Below, in pieces: positions 1 to 7,464 of a stretch of DNA of 64,000 nucleotides (position 1 is the stretch's first letter; every line of letters starts with the position of its first letter). The notes under the pieces were generated by a model. That model was not told where the DNA came from. It saw only the letters and a list, made by a program, of their open reading frames with translations, and did not search any database. Position numbers and translations under genes: made by a program. This stretch comes from Clostridia bacterium (GTDB lineage: Bacteria; Bacillota; DAOUPZ01): positions 29,812-93,811 of the forward strand of contig DAOUPZ010000010.1 in assembly GCA_030625885.1 (NCBI GenBank), read 5' to 3'.

Positions 1-2
1 AA

Positions 3-146
3 GAACCTTCAAATGAAGAATTTTCTCAAAATGTAAAAGCTTTTATTGCTACATTGGAAAGTATAAGTGCAATAGAAAAGCTTTCTGATAACAGCTATAT
101 TGTGTATGATAGCGGAAGTATAGGAGGTGTGTCATGGTTAATATAA
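3..146 (+). CDS. 3' end of an upstream gene in the AT-rich island (frame 3, open from the window edge, stop TAA at 144-146). It overlaps the next start by 13 nt.
   Basis: Frame 3 is open from position 3 to the TAA at 144-146 (…EPSNEEFSQNVKAFIATLESISAIEKLSDNSYIVYDSGSIGGVSWLI*). GGAGG at 123-127 serves the ATG at 134. Composition matches the island. Confidence 0.4.
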   Translation, partial: EPSNEEFSQNVKAFIATLESISAIEKLSDNSYIVYDSGSIGGVSWLI

Positions 147-3100
147 CAACTATAGATGAAAAGATATATAATATTTTATTGAAATATATAAAGGGAAGGT
201 ATCTAGGAGATACTCTTTTTTGTTGTATATCAGGCTGCAATAATAGGGTGATAAAGTATATAAAAGACAATTTATCAATACTTCAAAGTATAGAGAAAGA
301 ATATCATATCATGCCTATTTTTGAAGAAAAAACCAATTTTTCGTTTAATGAAATTGTGAGAATAAGAAATGATAAGGATATTAAGAAAATAATTATTTTT
401 ACAAATGGAAGTATAAGTAATATAGATTCACTTAAGGATTTTGCCCAAGTTGACATTAAAAAAATTCCATTTATGGATTTATGGGGTATTATTCAAGAAG
501 AGTGTGAAATTTATTGGAATGAAAATGATAAGTATAATGCGATTGAAAAATTTTTAAAGGATTTAACAGATATAATACAGCCTGAAATATATAATTTAAT
601 AGAGTATTTAGAGAAAGTAAATAAAGATAGTGTAATATATGATGATTTAATTTTAGCATTGAATACAGATTTGTATATGTTTAATATCTGGGCATCTTCA
701 TGTAATACGGTGTTACGAAAAAGCAAATTACAGACTATATATCATAATTCTGATCCTATTCAAATTCATAAGAAGATAACATCACCAAAAGATATCGAAA
801 AAATACAAAAGAGCAAAGATATTGACAAAGCCATACGAGGAAGATTCGGCAATATACGAAAGCAAAAAACAATACTAAGAGAGATGTTTTATGAGCGAAA
901 ATATAGCCAAGCATACAGAGAAATTTATTATGAAATTATTGAAAATATTCTTAAAGGAAGTGGAAAAAAGAAGAAAAGGAAAACTCATGAAGAAGAGGAT
1001 TCTTATAGTTACACTAATATATATAGTCTAGCATTAGGTGCATTAGCAGATTTAGACAATGATGTCACAGTAAGTGTTGATGAAATTAAAAGAGTTACAA
1101 GTTTTAATGATATAGATTTTGAGAATGATGCTGAAGAAGATTATCATTATAAGGTTGATATACCGTATTACTCAAATGAACAAAGTAATAATGAAGATAT
1201 ATTCGTAAATTTGGAAGATGCTAAAGTGAAGTGGAGTCAGTTTCAAAATAACTTTGCAGATAAAGATTATAGAGAAGATATTGTAGAATTATGTGATAAT
1301 TTAAATATACATAATAAAGATAAAATAATTTTAAAAAATAAGTTGGAAAGGTATCTTAATGCTAGAGATTATTTTATAAAACAAAACAATAATCCAATTA
1401 ACCTCAATGGTCTATTAAATAATTCCATAAAGTATGTAACATCTTTTTTCGAACTAATAAAAGAATTATATAATTTTAGACAAGCTACAATAAAAAATAT
1501 TTCTATGAATGGTTTAATTAATAAACTTGTTAACATTGATATCAAAATAAAAAATAATGAAATATATGTACCATTCTATAGTCCATTATTAATATTTCAT
1601 TTGCATAATATGAGAAGTAGATATGAAAAATGTTTATCAATTATTAATAAAATGAATACATATAGAGTTGAGATATTAGAACAAATAAATACTAAAATTT
1701 TAAATGAATATATAGTTTATGATAATAAAACCTATTTATTATCTCAAGATAATAGTAAATTTCCTTATTACATTAAATATATATGTGAAGAATATGTAGA
1801 TAGTATTATTACAATTAATTTTAATGTTATTTCACCATATATAATTAAATATATTAAGAAATATCCTTATAAAAATATAATTAAATTATGTCTAATAGGT
1901 GAAGTAGATTTAAAATCATTAAAAAATACCCTGTTAAAAATATTAGAAAAGATAGATTATTCAAACTTAACACGTTTTAGGCTTAAAATTATTACAAAAT
2001 CACCCAATGATGTTAGAGAAGTTCTTATTTCATTGTTTGAACAAAAAGAAAGCTTAAATAAAAAAATTGAATGTACTATAGAAAGGATGAAGTTAAATAT
2101 TAATCTAGAAAAATATGTGGAGAATTTAATTATTGAAAATGATATAACACTATTTTTGGATAGCAGTATAATGTATTTAAAAACACGTTTTAATAAAAAG
2201 AATGATAGTTATATTGAGAGGGTGGTTAGCTATAGAGATATATCTAGTGAAATTAATAGTATTTCTTATGTTTTAGAAGGTAAAAAAGACAGTATGCCTA
2301 TTATACCTAATGTTATAAATGTATTACAGAACTCTATTGAAAATGAAAACTTACAGAATGGAGAACTAGATAAATATAACTTAAATAATAATTTGATTTC
2401 TTGTATAAATAAGACTTTAAGTGATCTGAAGAATGAAGATAAAGAAGTTATACTTCTTTCAAGTGATAGCAAAATAGATGAACAAATTTTAGATAATCGA
2501 AATCTTAGTGAAATTGACGAGGCTGTCAATAAAAATGACAAAATAAAAGTGTTGACATTTTGTAAATGCACTAAAAATAAAGATGAATATACATTTAAAG
2601 AAAGCAATCATTACATTGAGTTTAATGCAAGTAATTTGTTAGATAGTTTTTTAATTGATAGTAAGCTGGGTTTTTCTTTTATGGACATAGATTTTGAAGA
2701 TATAATTATACGTATGTCATATGGAAATTTTCCACAAGCAATTGATATAGCCTATTATTTTATTAAAGAGTATGATGATGAAATCAGTAAAAAGATTGAA
2801 ATTGAAGTAGAATGTAAAAAAATGTTTGATACATTTATTAAAGTATCTATTAAACCTGAGTTATTTTTAGATAATTATAACAAAGAAAATTTTGTTAAAC
2901 TATTGTTAAGGAGTGCTAAAACAGAGGAAGATGTAGTTTTTATATATTCATTTGAAAATATTTATAATGATATTAAAATTAATTATATAGGAAATATAGA
3001 TTATAAAGATAAATCAAATATTACTAAAATATCTTCAATTAATAGAAATACAGTGTATAGAATATTAAAAATTTTAGGTGAAGAAGCTATTTCTGAACAA

Positions 3101-3262
3101 GCAATAAATAATTTTTCAGAAATGCTCAAAGTTAATAATTTTAGTATTAGCAATTTACCAATGTTACAAATATTAATTTCAAAATATAACCACAATTATA
3201 ATAACATGAAATATTTATATGAGAATATAGGTGCCGTGATTAAAAATATGGAGGTGAAATAA
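134..3262 (+). CDS. Large hypothetical protein (1042 aa), N/K/I-rich, with no recognisable catalytic motif. It is the first complete gene of the island operon.
   Basis: Uninterrupted 3.1-kb ORF, RBS GGAGG 7 nt upstream. Its stop TAA is directly followed by the ATG of the next gene (taaATG). No Walker or other known motif found by eye. Confidence 0.7.
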   Translation: MVNITTIDEKIYNILLKYIKGRYLGDTLFCCISGCNNRVIKYIKDNLSILQSIEKEYHIMPIFEEKTNFSFNEIVRIRNDKDIKKIIIFTNGSISNIDSLKDFAQVDIKKIPFMDLWGIIQEECEIYWNENDKYNAIEKFLKDLTDIIQPEIYNLIEYLEKVNKDSVIYDDLILALNTDLYMFNIWASSCNTVLRKSKLQTIYHNSDPIQIHKKITSPKDIEKIQKSKDIDKAIRGRFGNIRKQKTILREMFYERKYSQAYREIYYEIIENILKGSGKKKKRKTHEEEDSYSYTNIYSLALGALADLDNDVTVSVDEIKRVTSFNDIDFENDAEEDYHYKVDIPYYSNEQSNNEDIFVNLEDAKVKWSQFQNNFADKDYREDIVELCDNLNIHNKDKIILKNKLERYLNARDYFIKQNNNPINLNGLLNNSIKYVTSFFELIKELYNFRQATIKNISMNGLINKLVNIDIKIKNNEIYVPFYSPLLIFHLHNMRSRYEKCLSIINKMNTYRVEILEQINTKILNEYIVYDNKTYLLSQDNSKFPYYIKYICEEYVDSIITINFNVISPYIIKYIKKYPYKNIIKLCLIGEVDLKSLKNTLLKILEKIDYSNLTRFRLKIITKSPNDVREVLISLFEQKESLNKKIECTIERMKLNINLEKYVENLIIENDITLFLDSSIMYLKTRFNKKNDSYIERVVSYRDISSEINSISYVLEGKKDSMPIIPNVINVLQNSIENENLQNGELDKYNLNNNLISCINKTLSDLKNEDKEVILLSSDSKIDEQILDNRNLSEIDEAVNKNDKIKVLTFCKCTKNKDEYTFKESNHYIEFNASNLLDSFLIDSKLGFSFMDIDFEDIIIRMSYGNFPQAIDIAYYFIKEYDDEISKKIEIEVECKKMFDTFIKVSIKPELFLDNYNKENFVKLLLRSAKTEEDVVFIYSFENIYNDIKINYIGNIDYKDKSNITKISSINRNTVYRILKILGEEAISEQAINNFSEMLKVNNFSISNLPMLQILISKYNHNYNNMKYLYENIGAVIKNMEVK

Positions 3263-4285
3263 ATGAATAATGAAACTGAAAAGAAAAGTAATATAATTTG
3301 TATAAATTCTATTAAAGGTGGAGCTGGAAAGACAACTATTGCATTATCATTAGCATATTCTTTGCTTTCAGAGTTAGAAGTTAAATATGATAGTGATAGA
3401 TTGCAAGGAGAAGATGAGAATGTTACAGAAATACAAGAGCCAAAAGTTTGTTATATTGATTTAGATATATTGGGTACGGGGGCTAAACACATAATTTATG
3501 GAGAAAATTATATTGAAGATGATATAAAGTATTTAAATGATATGAAATCTACCGATAAAGATTTTAAACAATACATAAACTACTTAATAATAGAAGGTAA
3601 AAAATTTTGTGTTGATTGTATTATATTGAATGATGCTCCTGAAGAAAAAAATAAGTTTATTAATAATGCACGTTCACATACATCTACAGTTAATATAAAT
3701 ATGTTTCAAGGTAGGGCAAAAAAATTATTAGCTGAAATAGTTAAAGAAAATATTTATGACTATATTATTATTGACTGTGCTCCAGGTTACGAAGGATTTT
3801 CGCGAAATATATATGATTATTTAAAAAAAGAAATCAAGCTAAGGTATAATCATGTGAGAAATGTATATAATTTATTTATAACCACTTTGGATAAAGCGCA
3901 TGTAATGAATACAATTTCTTTTGTATATAATATTATAACTGCCACTGATAATAACCTAAATATTAAAATAGTTCTAAATGATACTTTGAATTACTTTGAT
4001 AATGAAGGCAAAAAAGAGGAGTTTATTAGTAATGTGATTGATAAATTCTCATTATTAAGTAAGAAAGAGATGGAGGAGTGTGGGGACAACCATAATCCTT
4101 CAATAATTAGTTTTAATATTGAATCTATAGTTGTAAAAAAATATAGTGATATAGCATTAAATATGTTTTTTGGAAATGGCAAACAATTACATGGTACTAG
4201 ACTTTGTGAGAACATAGATGATCGAGAGCTAGTTAAAACATTAAAAATATTATCATTTGGAGGTAATGATATTGTGGATTATTGA
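3263..4285 (+). CDS. ParA/MinD/Soj-type P-loop ATPase (deviant Walker A).
   Basis: N-terminal ICINSIKGGAGKTTIALSLA matches the KGGxGKT deviant Walker A. The hydrophobic YDYIIIDCAPG matches a ParA-type Walker B. Translationally coupled to the flanking genes. Confidence 0.75.
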   Translation: MNNETEKKSNIICINSIKGGAGKTTIALSLAYSLLSELEVKYDSDRLQGEDENVTEIQEPKVCYIDLDILGTGAKHIIYGENYIEDDIKYLNDMKSTDKDFKQYINYLIIEGKKFCVDCIILNDAPEEKNKFINNARSHTSTVNINMFQGRAKKLLAEIVKENIYDYIIIDCAPGYEGFSRNIYDYLKKEIKLRYNHVRNVYNLFITTLDKAHVMNTISFVYNIITATDNNLNIKIVLNDTLNYFDNEGKKEEFISNVIDKFSLLSKKEMEECGDNHNPSIISFNIESIVVKKYSDIALNMFFGNGKQLHGTRLCENIDDRELVKTLKILSFGGNDIVDY

Positions 4286-5963
4286 TGATAATAATATGCA
4301 AAATTTTTTTTCTGAGTGGTACGATAAATCAAATAAGATATTTAGTGATGAATTATCGAATGATATAGAACAAATGAACAAAAACATATTTTTATCACAA
4401 AATATAGATTTGAATTATGCAACTATGCAAAAAAACTTACACATGATTTTTGGTGAAAATACAAATGTAGAAAAACAGGTTTGTTTATTTGATGGTGTAT
4501 TAGAATTTTTACAGCATGTTGTTCAAGTAGATGGAGCTGATAGATTATTTAGTAAACATTTTTATGATATTGAATGGAATATGTTTTTAGAAGCAGATTT
4601 TGAAAAAAGTGAGATGAAAGTATATAGAGATCATTTTGTACATCAAATTAGAAATGCTTATTTAGGATATTACCTAATATGGGAAATAGGATTATATAAA
4701 AATATTGAATATGCAGTTCATAAATATGGTTCAACAGGATTCTCACAATATATAAATATATATAAATCAAAAGAATTAAATTCTGATGATAGAAAAATTT
4801 TTTATCAAAAAGTAATAATGAAAACTTGGTTTTTATCAGCTCTTTTTCATGATATAGGATATCCATTAGCATATCACCAAAGATATTCAGCAAGAATGGA
4901 CAAATATATGCCATATCTTAGAGTTTTGGATAACAGAAGACAGATGGATTTTATAGAACTATCGGCATTATTATCAGATACTTACTTGTTTAAAATGGTT
5001 GATTATGAAGAATTGAAATTAAAATATGAAAGATTTGATCATGGAATGTTGTCAGCAATATGCTTGCTCTTAAACTATTATCATACCGGTGCTATACACA
5101 GATTGTCAAATTCGGATAGATGTTCAATTGAACTAGCTGCTTATGCAATATTTGTTCATACAAGAAATTATTCTATACAAGGAAATTTAGAAAAAAATAT
5201 AAGACCTATTTTTGTTGAAGATCCTATTGCATATCTGCTACGATTATGTGATGATTTACAAGAATGGGCAAGAGTATATTTTATAGTAGGAGAAAATAGT
5301 AATGTTTTAATATGTGATAAATGTAAAAAAACAGTTGAGAAACAGGAAAATAGTGATATATATAGATGTAAATGTGGTAATACCTTCAAGAAAATTACTT
5401 CCATTAATTATAGAAAGATTAATCTAGTTGAAGTATGTAAAAAACTAACAATTGAAGATGATGGTAAAAAAATTATCTTTAAATTGGATTATGATTTGTT
5501 AAAATTAATGGAAGTTATAAAAATAGATGAACAATATGCAAAATATAGGGTAAAAGAACTTTCCAATTTAAAGAAATTATTAACAGATCAAGCGTTATTA
5601 CCAGAAATTGATATTAATTACTTTATAAGTAATAATCATATGGAAATAAAAGTTGAAATATTCTTGAGATATATAGAAAAATATTTTAAAGAAAAATATA
5701 TTAAAATAGCGTCTAAAGATTCAAATAGAATTAAACATGAATTTATGTTAGAAAATCAGAAAGAAATAGAAACATCTATTATTCGCAATTTACACTTGGA
5801 GTGTGATGATAATATAAAAGAATCTCTACGATGTGAGATGGAGAGTATTATTGAATATTTATGCAATAATAAACAAAGAGAACTAATATGCAAAAATCCT
5901 CCATGTGAAAATTATATGGAAAATATATATCTATATACATTAATAGACGGTGTTTGTCAATAA
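4257..5963 (+). CDS. HD-domain (metal-dependent phosphohydrolase or nuclease-like) protein with an internal Cys4 zinc ribbon. Start is uncertain: TTG 4257 or 4272, or ATG 4296.
   Basis: RDHFVHQIRNAYLG (His motif I), LFHDIGYPLAYH (HD motif), FDHGMLSAICL and LLRLCDDLQEW (distal His and Asp). CDKCKK…(x14)…CKCG zinc ribbon. It overlaps the end of the ATPase gene by 29 nt. Confidence 0.6.
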   Translation: MEVMILWIIDDNNMQNFFSEWYDKSNKIFSDELSNDIEQMNKNIFLSQNIDLNYATMQKNLHMIFGENTNVEKQVCLFDGVLEFLQHVVQVDGADRLFSKHFYDIEWNMFLEADFEKSEMKVYRDHFVHQIRNAYLGYYLIWEIGLYKNIEYAVHKYGSTGFSQYINIYKSKELNSDDRKIFYQKVIMKTWFLSALFHDIGYPLAYHQRYSARMDKYMPYLRVLDNRRQMDFIELSALLSDTYLFKMVDYEELKLKYERFDHGMLSAICLLLNYYHTGAIHRLSNSDRCSIELAAYAIFVHTRNYSIQGNLEKNIRPIFVEDPIAYLLRLCDDLQEWARVYFIVGENSNVLICDKCKKTVEKQENSDIYRCKCGNTFKKITSINYRKINLVEVCKKLTIEDDGKKIIFKLDYDLLKLMEVIKIDEQYAKYRVKELSNLKKLLTDQALLPEIDINYFISNNHMEIKVEIFLRYIEKYFKEKYIKIASKDSNRIKHEFMLENQKEIETSIIRNLHLECDDNIKESLRCEMESIIEYLCNNKQRELICKNPPCENYMENIYLYTLIDGVCQ

Positions 5964-6095: not shown

Positions 6096-6215
6096 CTGTC
6101 AAAGGGACGGGGTTGTTGACAACACCCCTAATTTGGGATAACCTAGATTAGGGGTGTTTTTTATGCCGAGAAAAGCAAGAAACAAAATTGAGAGGCTAAC
6201 AGGTATCAACAGGGT
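6096..6215 (+). repeat. Structured repeat, copy 1: TTGACA, 36-nt perfect hairpin, T6, conserved ATGCCGAGAAAAGCAAGAA, and a GCTAACAGGTATCAACA box.
   Basis: Hairpin is ACACCCCTAATTTGGGATAACCTAGATTAGGGGTGT followed by TTTTTT. The flanking sequence aligns with copy 2 at 9198-9300. Confidence 0.7.
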
Positions 6216-6296: not shown

Positions 6297-6629
6297 ATGA
6301 TGGAAAAAATAAATTTAAGCGCTGCCAATGTGAAAAATGCTAAAAAAAATATCAAGAGGAACATTGATTTGCAAAAACCTTTTACTGTCGTGCTTCAAGG
6401 AAGAAAAGCGCAATCAATAATTAGAAAAATTAATACCTCTTCCCTTAAGGAGGATTTTGTAACCGCAAAAGGGGCATTATTAGATAGTGATTCTGATTTA
6501 AAATTTTATATCGTTGCAGCGATCGGGTTAATTACAATGGTAACTTCATTAGAAGGTTATAGACTATTTGTAAAAACAAATATAGATAATAGTGAGGAAG
6601 TAATAATCATATTTAAGAGAGAGAAATAA
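6297..6629 (+). CDS. Hypothetical small protein (110 aa).
   Basis: ORF with GAGAGGAAGG RBS-like sequence upstream. No motif recognised. Confidence 0.35.
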   Translation: MMEKINLSAANVKNAKKNIKRNIDLQKPFTVVLQGRKAQSIIRKINTSSLKEDFVTAKGALLDSDSDLKFYIVAAIGLITMVTSLEGYRLFVKTNIDNSEEVIIIFKREK

Positions 6630-6794: not shown

Positions 6795-7079
6795 ATGCGG
6801 GATAATGTTTTAGATGAAATAAGAGAAATTGCTATGAAGTATAATATTCAAAAGGTTATACTGTTTGGCTCTCGTGCAAGGGGAGATTATTTACCTACTA
6901 GCGATTATGATTTTGCAATCATTGCAGAGGATTTATCTGTTTTGGATAAAGCTATTTTTTGTGCCGACGTTGAGGAAATTAACACACTCAAAAAAATTGA
7001 TATTGTATTTGTTGACTCAAATACTAGTAATGATTTGATGAAGAATATCAAGAGGGATGGTGTGATCATATATGAGTAA
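6795..7079 (+). CDS. Nucleotidyltransferase (MNT or MntA-like antitoxin) of an MNT/HEPN pair.
   Basis: LFGSRARGDYLPTSDYDFAI carries the GSxxxG…DxD pol-beta-type nucleotidyltransferase signature. It overlaps the downstream HEPN gene by 8 nt. Confidence 0.8.
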   Translation: MRDNVLDEIREIAMKYNIQKVILFGSRARGDYLPTSDYDFAIIAEDLSVLDKAIFCADVEEINTLKKIDIVFVDSNTSNDLMKNIKRDGVIIYE

Positions 7080-7464
7080 GTTAGAAACAAAATTAAATAA
7101 TTTTACTAATGCATTACAGAGATTAAAAGAAGCCGCAATAGAGCTTGAAAAAGATGATGCGAGTGATGTTGTGCGTGATGGTCTTATTCAAAGATTTGAG
7201 TTTACTTATGAACTTGCATGGAAGACCACAAAGCAATATTTGGAAGAGGTCGGTATTGTAGACAATAATTCTCCAAAAGCTGTTATAAAAGCAGCATATG
7301 CTCAGAATCTTATTTTTAATGAGCAAAACTGGTTACTTATGCTAAATGATAGAAATCTGACTTCTCATGTATATAAGGAAGAAATAGCAGAAGAAATAGC
7401 TGAGAGAATAACCGATTATTATATTAATGAATTTGAGAAATTGCTAAGCAAACTACAAGTATAA
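7072..7464 (+). CDS. HEPN-domain toxin (HepT-like).
   Basis: C-terminal RNLTSHVY fits the Rx4HxY HEPN motif. Size 130 aa. Gene order MNT then HEPN. Confidence 0.8.
   Translation: MSKLETKLNNFTNALQRLKEAAIELEKDDASDVVRDGLIQRFEFTYELAWKTTKQYLEEVGIVDNNSPKAVIKAAYAQNLIFNEQNWLLMLNDRNLTSHVYKEEIAEEIAERITDYYINEFEKLLSKLQV

Follow-up and report, generated by a model that had tools for sequence, protein, structure and literature searches.

The described systems closest to the locus reported here are restriction modules built from F, G and H subunits and the MADS system. SspFGH is a phosphorothioate (PT)-linked restriction module (Wang et al. 2021, PMC8092258), and DndFGH modules are commonly found on their own without modification genes, so that genomic coupling to PT genes is not obligatory (PMC10853773). 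The F subunits of these modules are derived P-loop kinases with an intact Walker A, in which Asn replaces the Walker B Asp, strand 2 is followed by an acidic residue and the helical lid is large; DndH has an inactive P-loop-type domain at its start and also carries a Rossmann methyltransferase domain that has eroded (Rakesh, Aravind and Krishnan 2024, PMC10853773). MADS comprises eight genes (mad1-8), of which MAD6-8 form a mandatory core that is required for protection (Maestri et al. 2023/2024; bioRxiv 10.1101/2023.03.30.534895).

The window that we analyzed, a stretch of 64,000 nucleotides from a Clostridia bacterium, begins inside an operon. A preliminary description of this DNA had implied that the long open reading frame at its left end, here called gene C, is the first of three genes. 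An extended locus (L002) that is identical to the window across their overlap, with window position 1 at L002 position 4674, corrects this view: The window edge cuts off the upstream part of a five-gene operon, A-B-C-D-E, in which C comes third. Its features are as follows, in window positions unless stated otherwise.

Gene A: L002 positions 1658-3304, wholly upstream of the window; 548 aa; SspF/DndF-type P-loop kinase.
Gene B: L002 positions 3305-4819, with its 3' end at window positions 1-146, forward strand; 504 aa in full; MAD7/DptG/SspG-like putative DNA-binding subunit.
Gene C: 134-3262, forward strand; ATG to TAA, 1042 aa; unnamed family, largest subunit of the cassette.
Gene D: 3263-4285, forward strand; 340 aa; predicted ParA/MinD-type (deviant Walker A) ATPase.
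Gene E: 4257-5963, forward strand, overlapping the end of D; about 565 aa; predicted HD domain plus Cys4 zinc ribbon.
Intrinsic-terminator-like hairpin: 6121-6158, forward strand, about 160 nt past gene E; 17-bp stem followed by a T run; probably terminates the operon.

The genes are tightly packed. C starts 13 nt before the end of B, and the ATG of D at 3263 directly abuts the TAA of C (3260-3262) with a GGAGG 8 nt upstream that lies inside C, which confirms the translational coupling to the ATPase that had been claimed from the window alone. Candidate start codons of gene E are TTG at 4257, ATG at 4266 or TTG at 4272. The hairpin was located at L002 10794-10831 and converted with an offset of 4673 nt.

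Gene C is real, as had been proposed from its uninterrupted length. At the base composition of this region a stop would be expected every 9.6 codons, and the probability of 1042 open codons is about 1e-50, so that chance can be dismissed as the origin of the frame; the other five frames across 134-3262 contain 42-202 stops each. GC content by codon position is 31/21/16%, and a dN/dS of 0.20 against a JGI homologue at 56% identity indicates that the gene is under purifying selection. No named family matches it: The C family gave no hit when searched against NCBIfam and PADLOC (26 members), Pfam (two C proteins) or PDB sequences. Its designation as an ORFan nevertheless goes too far, because exhaustive HMMER searches recovered 30 cluster representatives at 50% identity, and a query with a compositionally normal member returned 82 clusters at 90% identity, which sets a lower bound for the size of the family; most come from gut Clostridia. 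Word-indexed searches miss these relatives since the window's own C is low-complexity and AT-rich. We looked for Walker A, HD, nuclease and transmembrane motifs in C and found none, and a Kyte-Doolittle scan had no 19-residue window above 1.6 (maximum 1.05) and hence no transmembrane segment; together with the domain searches, these scans agree with the earlier statement that C lacks a P-loop, catalytic motif and membrane segment.

The gene order is conserved. Each of the 39 non-redundant loci, with C at identities as low as 24%, has A-B-C-D-E on a single strand with genes that abut or overlap, and the comparison that the preliminary description had suggested, whether homologues of C are always followed by ParA-like and HD genes, thus came out positive for 39/39 non-redundant full cassettes. 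There is also a three-gene variant, where D and E follow a shorter homologue named C'. In the window, the first 6 kb have 23.5-25% GC compared to 33-42% in the remainder, and the operon sits on an island of ca. 9 kb at 24% GC that we interpret as horizontally acquired. Among 144 proteins flanking sampled independent loci, 169 different Pfam families were matched and only recombinase, integrase and transposase-associated domains recur, which together with the low-GC island suggests that the cassette is self-contained and mobile. Known defense genes showed no clear enrichment among these 144 immediate neighbors. Single loci adjoin a type I restriction-modification (R-M) system, a TIR-CHAT protein, integrases or transposases.

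The two upstream genes that had been missed in the window, SspF-like A and MAD7/G-like B, are the operon's only link to known biology. Gene A matches the PADLOC SspF model at E 9e-23, with further SspF matches at 5e-20 and 6e-14, and in hhalign comparisons A aligns with F proteins from four true F-G-H loci over 303 columns (probability 99.3%, E 1.8e-20). The features of F subunits are all present: an Asn at Walker B (IIAANSG), the residues ND ending strand 2 (YINDFSE) and a lid with a Cys cluster, next to an intact Walker A motif. Invariant positions are G63, A65, G66, D67, G68 and K69 of Walker A, D89, N121 and three Cys. The NCBIfam DptF model does not match gene A, which places A nearer to SspF than to DptF. 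The evidence for gene B is confined to ca. 110-170 C-terminal residues, where it matches the NCBIfam MAD7 model (E 1.7e-8; 34 bits, far under the cut-off of 410) and, over 113 columns, the G proteins of true F-G-H triads (hhalign probability 53.8%, E 1.3e-4). G subunits are multi-wHTH DNA-binding proteins of about 450-500 aa whose gene directly follows that of F; with 487-527 aa and a position directly after A, the B proteins fit this in size and place. One gene B homologue gave a weak SspB match (E 0.002).

The first part of the operon resembles SspFGH in that the largest protein comes third, after an SspF homologue and a G-sized protein of ca. 500 aa, with all genes co-directional and tightly packed. 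Unlike SspFGH, the cassette has additional ParA-type ATPase and HD genes, is found chiefly in gut Clostridia instead of Proteobacteria and has no sspABCD genes nearby; neither these nor dndABCDE were found in the cassette, among the 144 immediate neighbors or among the window genes examined. Compared to DndFGH/DptFGH, gene A shares the DndF-type features listed above, whereas the NCBIfam models for DptF, DptG and DptH miss the cassette. MADS resembles it in the ca. 170 C-terminal residues of B, but the cassette has five genes instead of eight and lacks MAD6, MAD8 and the methyltransferase, specificity-subunit and kinase genes. Membership in MADS was considered and rejected, as NCBIfam gives no MADS-family match for A, C, D or E.

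Downstream of C, gene D matches Pfam AAA_31 (E 8e-10; 39.3 bits against a cut-off of 27) as well as CbiA and ParA. Like ParA/MinD proteins, it has a KGGxGK[TS] motif with the signature lysine and conserved switch and Walker B aspartates; K18, G19, G20, G22, K23, D66, D68 and D171 are invariant. By these sequence features D is a member of the ParA/MinD (deviant Walker A) superfamily. Assignment as a specific ParA, MinD or partition equivalog was rejected because the NCBIfam matches to ParA_partition, MinD and a KGGVGR-variant ATPase score far below their cut-offs and mostly cover the P-loop only. Gene E was described earlier as an HD protein, and this holds: Although neither Pfam (HD models included) nor PDB sequences match it, residues H123, H126, H195-D196 (FHDIGYP), D258-H259, H298 and D329 (RLCDDLQEW) are invariant across seven loci. 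Judged by these motifs, E belongs to the HD superfamily of metal-dependent phosphohydrolases. It shares the H..HD..H..D metal-binding signature with the Cas3 HD nuclease and gave weak matches to PADLOC Cas3 effector models (E 0.035-0.41), but unlike Cas3 it has no helicase domain and no Pfam HD match. Four further cysteines (C350, C353, C368, C370; invariant in the same seven loci) form a zinc ribbon that suggests nucleic-acid binding. Candidate substrates are DNA, RNA, dNTPs and cyclic nucleotides, and E may also be a dNTPase or a cyclic-nucleotide phosphodiesterase.

A ParA/MinD-type ATPase on a low-GC island, with integrase, resolvase and transposase genes flanking several loci, could also be read as a module that serves to maintain or segregate an integrated mobile element, with D acting in partition and C as the adaptor to the element's DNA. 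We consider this very improbable. Unlike known ParA/MinD systems, D has no ParB, MinE or centromere-binding partner, is absent from plasmids and sits between a protein of ca. 1,000 aa and an HD protein. Known partition systems have no role for an HD protein with a zinc ribbon, the components to which A and B are homologous have been described only in restriction and defense modules, and the flanking mobile-element genes vary between loci. In tblastn searches of 72,556 plasmids and 50,697 phages, C and E had no match; E had one distant match among 2.9 million viral contigs. C itself bears no signature of an adhesin or plasmid replication protein, the two identities that would have spoken against the preliminary description's view of this gene.

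What C does was approached through an AlphaFold model (pLDDT 81.7), supplemented by a separate model of its N-terminal module (pLDDT 81.3, pTM 0.75), and through residue conservation. The predicted parts of the protein, all on the forward strand, are the following.

N-terminal module: 134-1138 (aa 1-335); predicted four-stranded alpha/beta domain without Walker A, then a helical lid.
Lys/Glu-rich linker, GKKKKRKTHEEEDS: 959-1006 (aa 276-291); predicted to be disordered, with pLDDT below 50 in both models.
Conserved core: 1283-2965 (aa ca. 384-944); common to the C' proteins of 690-860 aa.
Rossmann-like alpha/beta domain: 1832-2563 (aa ca. 567-810); from the secondary structure of the predicted model.
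Most conserved core motif, D670-ITLFL-D676-SS-IM-Y681: 2141-2176; strand 4 of the Rossmann domain and the following loop.

In Foldseek searches, the best matches of the N-terminal module were AAA+ clamp-loader/ORC/DnaA modules (E at least 0.047), and those of the whole chain were PsiM, METTL13, MnmC-N, DOT1L, SpeE and GRAS (E 0.014-0.8, probability up to 1.0, weak TM-scores of ca. 0.35-0.45). With best E-values of 0.014 and 0.047 and TM-scores of 0.2-0.45 these matches are non-significant, and the domain assignments should therefore be read as suggestions only. The search reports no query ranges, and we infer from the beta-alpha-beta topology that the methyltransferase matches belong to aa ca. 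567-810, where strand 4 of the model is followed by an insertion and the domain ends in a beta-hairpin. Conservation marks R78, N79, S99, L100, K101, L180 and S206 (invariant) as well as D98 and W186 (nearly invariant) in the N-terminal module. In the core motif, D676 is invariant and D670 and Y681 nearly so among 26 sequences, with the consensus DxxFxxDSSxLY in the C family and D(I/L)VFFLDxxxLY in the C' family. The invariant polar residues R78, N79, D98, S99, K101, D670, D676 and Y681 could be catalytic rather than structural.

This raises the question of whether C is an active enzyme whose Rossmann domain modifies DNA or nucleotides as a methyltransferase-like self-marking arm, which would make the cassette a complete modification-restriction system. 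N6-adenine methyltransferases carry FDxxxx[DNS]PP[YFW] at strand 4 and the following loop, where C and C' keep D670-x5-D676-S-S-x-x-Y681; the likeness to class I SAM-dependent methyltransferase folds is recurrent, though weak, and no other modification gene lies in or adjoins the cassette. Nevertheless, we regard an active enzyme as improbable. The class I fold is a Rossmann-like fold of seven strands in which a Gly-rich SAM loop follows strand 1 and a catalytic motif follows strand 4. In C, the loop after strand 1 reads LIGEVD with a single Gly in place of the GxGxG-type SAM loop, the fold E-values are weak, and no methyltransferase model matched 26 C proteins (NCBIfam, PADLOC), two C proteins (Pfam) or four C' proteins (Pfam, PADLOC). 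Moreover, DndH carries a comparable methyltransferase domain that is demonstrably eroded (PMC10853773).

The last point also bears on whether C is a highly diverged orthologue of DndH, SspH or MAD8 that has lost the C-terminal restriction endonuclease (REase) and HerA/FtsK parts, so that the operon would be a deviant SspFGH/DndFGH with D and E as later replacements. C occupies the H position directly after the F-like and G-like genes, and it resembles the N-terminal two thirds of DndH in combining an inactive P-loop-type domain with an inactive methyltransferase-like Rossmann domain that has a strand-4 insertion (PMC10853773). Two segments are colinear in hhalign, H 49-146 with C 14-106 and H 426-732 with C 344-638, albeit non-significantly. 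However, comparing four H proteins to the 26-member C profile gave a probability of 0.9% (E 0.062), a negative result that is not strong because the H profile is shallow (four sequences, three of them close relatives), and the 26 C members have no SspH/DptH (PADLOC) or Dpt/MADS (NCBIfam) matches. These comparisons thus found no H subunit in the cassette. The same is true for a HerA/FtsK translocase, which in DndH comes with an REase: The only ATPases of the cassette are F-like A and ParA-type D, and C has no FtsK/HerA sequence match nor any such chain among the best 50 fold matches listed. Its N-terminal module is also nearer to AAA+/clamp-loader modules than to the SF2 C-terminal domain of the DndH comparison, both likenesses being weak.

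The core of C also occurs without any F-G pair. The C' and C families are clearly homologous (hhalign probability 99.8%, E 1.6e-27, 533 columns), and in other genomes the core (aa ca. 384-944) is found with D and E alone in three-gene modules, whereas the N-terminal module is present in 39/39 loci with A and B but in 0/15 loci without them. The core of C can thus stand alone with D and E, and recruitment of an F-G pair by a C-D-E module fits this independence better than the decay of an H subunit, which we consider unlikely. Relatives of gene E were found in 295 GTDB species genomes. It is conceivable, if somewhat short of an even chance, that C'-D-E is an autonomous anti-invader system, common among gut Clostridia and not described before, in which a DNA-bound ATP switch of the ParA type does the job of the HerA/FtsK translocases in Dnd/Ssp/BREX-related "capture" systems. 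If so, the five-gene form in the window would be a natural chimera: The module would have gained an N-terminal adaptor and taken over the F-G sensor pair from restriction systems of the phosphorothioate type, and F-G would prove to be a portable sensor cassette that can also drive effectors of unrelated kinds.

Our preferred reading, to which we give about an even chance, is that C is a large non-catalytic hub of a self-contained, restriction-like and defense-like operon of five genes. The preliminary description had likewise proposed a sensor or scaffold, and of these we favor the scaffold as a role deduced from gene order and domain co-occurrence. A would be a nucleotide-binding sensor and B a DNA-binding protein that together recognize foreign DNA or infection-derived nucleotides. 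This pair would dock onto the N-terminal 335-380 residues of C with their degenerate P-loop-like domain and helical lid, while the core with its methyltransferase-like Rossmann domain devoid of the SAM loop would form an effector module together with D and E. D would dimerize on ATP binding and E act as a phosphohydrolase or nuclease. A signal passing via C to the ParA-type ATP switch on DNA would then license the HD protein to degrade nucleic acid; defense as the overall function, the physical contacts, the direction of signaling and nuclease activity are all deduced in this scheme. C would functionally stand for DndH/SspH with ATPase and nuclease supplied in trans, ParA in place of HerA/FtsK and HD in place of the REase. 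Broadly as in DndFGH, an ATPase and a nuclease would receive input from numerous DNA-binding or sensor domains, but in contrast to DndH the roles of REase and HerA/FtsK are apparently found in separate proteins of unrelated folds.

At present, the value of these observations lies in a well-defined computational hypothesis and a set of loci. If the hypothesis is true, the F and G components of Dnd/Ssp/MADS-type restriction would be exchangeable sensors that are not tied to a DndH-type nuclease-translocase, and the cassette would provide a naturally occurring contrast that helps to work out what these two subunits sense. In addition, a defense-like system would have a ParA/MinD-type ATPase among its core components. 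At least 82 unannotated clusters of proteins of ca. 1,000 aa would gain a testable function, as would the wider three-gene module of human and mouse gut Clostridia, bacteria for which few defense systems have been characterized.

The reading frame of gene C, whose length the preliminary description had judged very unlikely to arise by chance, is a real gene:

134..3262, plus strand: gene C, ATG to TAA, called as an ORF of 1042 aa

GC content is 23.5-25% over the initial 6 kb of the window and 33-42% over the other 58 kb. At the base composition of the island, stop codons should come about 9.6 codons apart, which puts the probability of 1042 open codons at P ~ 1e-50, and the five alternative frames over the same stretch contain 42-202 stops. 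The GC content of C falls from 31% at codon position 1 to 16% at position 3, and a dN/dS of 0.20 was obtained relative to its closest homologue (56% identity). The product was said to have neither a P-loop nor a transmembrane segment, and indeed we found no Walker A motif in C and a maximum Kyte-Doolittle hydropathy of 1.05 in 19-residue windows. Its proposed translational coupling to the ATPase gene (gene D) also agrees with the sequence, where the ATG of D directly follows the TAA of C with a GGAGG 8 nt upstream.

The window edge cuts the operon. A Logan contig (L002), which shows no difference from the window where the two overlap, reaches 4.7 kb further upstream and reveals two additional co-directional genes ahead of C, i.e., A (548 aa, with the Walker A motif GDAGDGKS) and B (504 aa), which overlaps C by 13 nt. 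Downstream of C follow D (340 aa) and E (about 565 aa), and then a terminator:

6121-6158: terminator with a 17-bp stem, after gene E

The low-GC block coincides with this five-gene cassette, and the remaining window is ordinary chromosome encoding, e.g., PriA, acetyl-CoA synthetase, and a solute symporter. No att-like direct repeats flanking the island were found within the 11-kb contig and no tRNA genes near it. An 85-aa fragment with a weak Phage_integrase match, ca. 450 nt upstream of gene A (L002 961-1218), suggests a degraded integrase at the left border of the island. Directly past the operon terminator lies a 110-aa ORF (window 6297-6629) that has no Pfam match and is also gene-called on the Logan contig. 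Just downstream of the island, the ORF at 7072-7464 strongly matches NTase_sub_bind (HEPN-type; Pfam E 2.6e-39) and is preceded by a 94-aa ORF (6795-7079) overlapping its start, and the two look like an MNT/HEPN toxin-antitoxin pair.

C is not an ORFan as previously described but a member of a real, though unnamed, protein family. Word-indexed searches with the window's C protein recovered merely 2 proteins (itself and one relative) and again 2 with a 26-sequence profile, because the AT-rich, low-complexity composition swamps the index. Exhaustive HMMER searching of 1.84 billion representatives yielded 30 proteins at E <= 1e-3 (17 of them at E <= 1e-10), nearly all 950-1130 aa long, and a compositionally normal member used as query led to 82 clusters at 90% identity, none with a Pfam domain and all named ones annotated as 'hypothetical protein'. 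Word-indexed search with this AT-rich, Ile/Asn/Lys-rich query thus gave 2 matches for a family of at least 82 clusters, and ORFan calls made on low-GC sequences by such searches alone are unreliable.

Neither C of the window nor its homologue at locus L001 has a match in Pfam, NCBIfam, or PADLOC, and none of the 26 aligned members matches NCBIfam or PADLOC models. PDB sequence searches using profiles of A, B, C, and E were negative, and a TRIM25 coiled-coil match for C (E 0.026) was discounted as compositional. Across the 26 members, R78, N79, S99, L100, K101, L180, S206, P484, and D676 are invariant, and D98, W186, Y297, P421, Y573, D670, and Y681 nearly so. Two identities that would have spoken against a role of C in the putative system, a surface protein or adhesin and a plasmid replication or partition protein, were both rejected: C has no transmembrane segment, no repeats, no hydrophobic stretch at its N-terminus, and a cytoplasmic-type helical and alpha/beta build, and both C and E are missing from plasmid and phage collections.

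Of the partners of C, A and putatively B link the cassette to known restriction systems. A matches the PADLOC SspF models (E 9e-23) as well as the F proteins of our four reference F-G-H(FtsK) triads, which are genuine triads from haloarchaeal and cyanobacterial plasmids (hhalign 99.3%, E 1.8e-20), and it shares with DndF-type proteins (PMC10853773) an Asn at Walker B (IIAANSG), an ND behind strand 2 (YINDFSE), and a cluster of three Cys. The C-terminal ca. 170 residues of B match the MAD7 model of NCBIfam (E 1.7e-8, with a score well under the cut-off of that family), and the C-terminal part also matches G proteins (54%, E 1.3e-4); B is thus a candidate MAD7/G-like protein with moderate support. 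D is a ParA/MinD-type ATPase with invariant KGGxGK[TS], D66, D68, and D171. E combines an invariant HD signature (H123, H126, H195-D196, D258-H259, H298, D329) with a Cys4 zinc ribbon and is detected by none of the Pfam HD models. Methanobrevibacter genomes encode distant E-like HD proteins of ca. 750-830 aa in tandem pairs, with an RyR domain on one copy at L073 (Pfam E 3e-14):

L073 7277-12067: tandem E-like pair
L080 9689-14398: tandem E-like pair
L081 7245-11968: tandem E-like pair
L087 7251-12115: tandem E-like pair
L088 7260-11926: tandem E-like pair

The order A-B-C-D-E is found in all contexts retrieved through gene C (7/7). Alignments of C were unusable for a pattern scan of genomes since no stretch is conserved enough, and motifs of E were therefore taken as anchor. 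A relative of E is encoded in 295 GTDB species genomes, from which we fetched 80 loci, mostly from MAGs of Lachnospiraceae and other Clostridia of mouse and human gut with outliers in Calditrichales, Rikenellaceae, and Treponema, and scanned all loci with HMMs built from our own alignments of the cassette proteins. The full cassette is present at 39 non-redundant loci, at which C is followed by the ParA-like and HD genes D and E, as the preliminary description had proposed to check. D and E without A or B were seen at 16 loci (including L063 on a truncated contig) and an E-like protein only at 29, where most of these proteins are distant relatives and a few contigs are truncated.

At 14 of the loci with D and E lacking A and B, D is preceded by a 690-860-aa protein (C'). 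As a family, the C' proteins are homologous to residues ca. 384-944 of C (hhalign 99.8%, E 1.6e-27, 533 columns); the most conserved motif of C recurs in them and reads D(I/L)VFFLDxxxLY in C' and DxxFxxDSSxLY in C. Four C' proteins searched against Pfam and PADLOC had no match. The cassette thus has two forms, a three-gene core C'-D-E' and the five-gene form, in which C carries ca. 335-380 additional N-terminal residues. This N-terminal module occurs at 39/39 loci with A and B and at 0/15 informative loci without them, and no other gene carries it. The three-gene form, with E' of 725-890 aa, is found in MAGs of Lachnospiraceae, Eubacterium, Rikenellaceae, and Treponema:

L021 6468-12157: C'-D-E', A and B absent
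L030 6524-12088: C'-D-E', A and B absent
L034 6464-11986: C'-D-E', A and B absent
L043 4650-10655: C'-D-E', A and B absent
L049 6263-12223: C'-D-E', A and B absent
about 10 more loci: C'-D-E', A and B absent

E' is 150-300 aa longer than E of the window, and the extra region has no Pfam or PADLOC match. At two loci, gene C is split into ORFs of 617 aa and 378 aa (L065 3634-7208) or gene E into ORFs of 128 aa and 436 aa (L048 9678-11371), and these cassettes look like decaying copies.

An AlphaFold2 model of C based on the 26-sequence alignment (pLDDT 81.7, pTM 0.65) predicts the following architecture:

aa 1-125: alpha/beta domain, followed by a helical lid to ca. aa 325
aa 276-291: disordered basic/acidic linker
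aa 338-520: beta-hairpin and long-helix bundle
between the helix bundle and the Rossmann-like domain: beta-meander
aa ca. 567-810: Rossmann-like domain, carrying an insertion behind strand 4 and closing with a hairpin
beyond the Rossmann-like domain: more beta elements, followed by a helical bundle at the C-terminus

Foldseek found nothing at E <= 1e-3 for the whole model in PDB and BFVD. Recurrent weak matches are to class I methyltransferase folds, with PsiM (E 0.014, probability 1.0) alongside METTL13, MnmC-N, DOT1L, SpeE, and GRAS; the loop after strand 1 of the Rossmann-like domain lacks the Gly-rich SAM motif, and an invariant acidic/aromatic motif is kept at the strand-4 position. Residues 1-335 modelled separately (pLDDT 81.3, pTM 0.75) likewise gave nothing in the PDB at E <= 1e-3, and the weak but thematically uniform matches are to AAA+ clamp-loader, ORC, DnaA, and FtsH modules (best E 0.047), plus a small number of SF2 remodellers of lower probability. 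Because the family has no Walker A motif, we read the N-terminal region as a degenerate P-loop-like module that is probably nucleotide-free. All these fold assignments are hints rather than demonstrations.

C occupies the position that H holds in DndFGH/SspFGH systems, and DndH likewise has an inactive P-loop-type domain at its start and an eroded Rossmann methyltransferase domain within (PMC10853773). A split and very remotely related DndH is a less likely rival explanation for C. However, comparison of the C profile with the four H proteins of the plasmid triads, which make a shallow profile, was not significant (hhalign 0.9% probability, E 0.06), the SspH and DptH models match no C member, and C has no REase and HerA/FtsK domains. 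We therefore neither file C as an H protein nor class the cassette with SspFGH/DndFGH, since the search for the defining H subunit revealed no significant homology. Among the plasmid loci, the F-G-H(FtsK) triads of two haloarchaeal plasmids (L090 6844-16673 and L092 6843-16673) directly follow a 'Druantia DruA' or DUF4338 gene and lie opposite a large DEAD/DEAH helicase operon, which may make them composite Druantia-like/F-G-H islands. The locus on a Pseudanabaena plasmid (L091 8797-17542) has two small additional ORFs between G and H and encodes an F protein of 610 aa with an N-terminal extension; genes for a 'DNA phosphorothioation-associated putative methyltransferase' and a DUF4007 protein are found within a few kb of it.

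The surroundings of the cassette are varied, with matches to 169 different Pfam families among 144 flanking proteins from independent loci. Recurrence is limited to serine recombinases (4), sigma factors (4), integrases (2), and transposase-associated domains (2), and neither the cassette nor these neighbours include a conserved modification enzyme. Individual cassettes adjoin integrases (L002 and L008), a resolvase (L009), a type I R-M system (L003), or, at L001, a TIR-CHAT-TPR protein and transposase fragments. By tblastn, C and E are absent from 72,556 plasmids and 50,697 phages, which led us to reject a plasmid partition/replication set or a phage gene set, and 2.9 million viral contigs contain one distant relative of E only. 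Given these varied flanks and the absence from plasmids and phages, the cassette is a self-contained, horizontally moving chromosomal island.

Because the core of C is always accompanied by D and E and its N-terminal module always by A and B, the simplest interpretation makes C a physical hub, whose core would assemble the HD protein with the ParA-type ATPase and whose N-terminal module would dock the F-G pair. SspFGH has been shown to damage unmodified DNA and to inhibit phage replication. By analogy to what has been shown for SspFGH and proposed for DndFGH, the sensing of nucleotides or DNA would fall to A and B, D would be a switch that works on DNA and depends on ATP, and E would serve as effector, either a nuclease or a phosphohydrolase. 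The methyltransferase-like domain of C may read DNA or bases rather than act as an enzyme. Literature searches found no defense module combining ParA-like and HD proteins, and neither the cassette nor its three-gene core turned up in PADLOC-DB 2.0, NCBIfam 20.0, Pfam, or the searchable literature, though a newer DefenseFinder model or another paper may describe them. We rate the cassette as a putative restriction-like system that contains F-G but differs in its hub, ATPase, and nuclease; its three-gene core might itself constitute a new system. As comparative genomics, the cassette is a solid and specific finding, and a ParA in place of HerA/FtsK would be surprising to a specialist.
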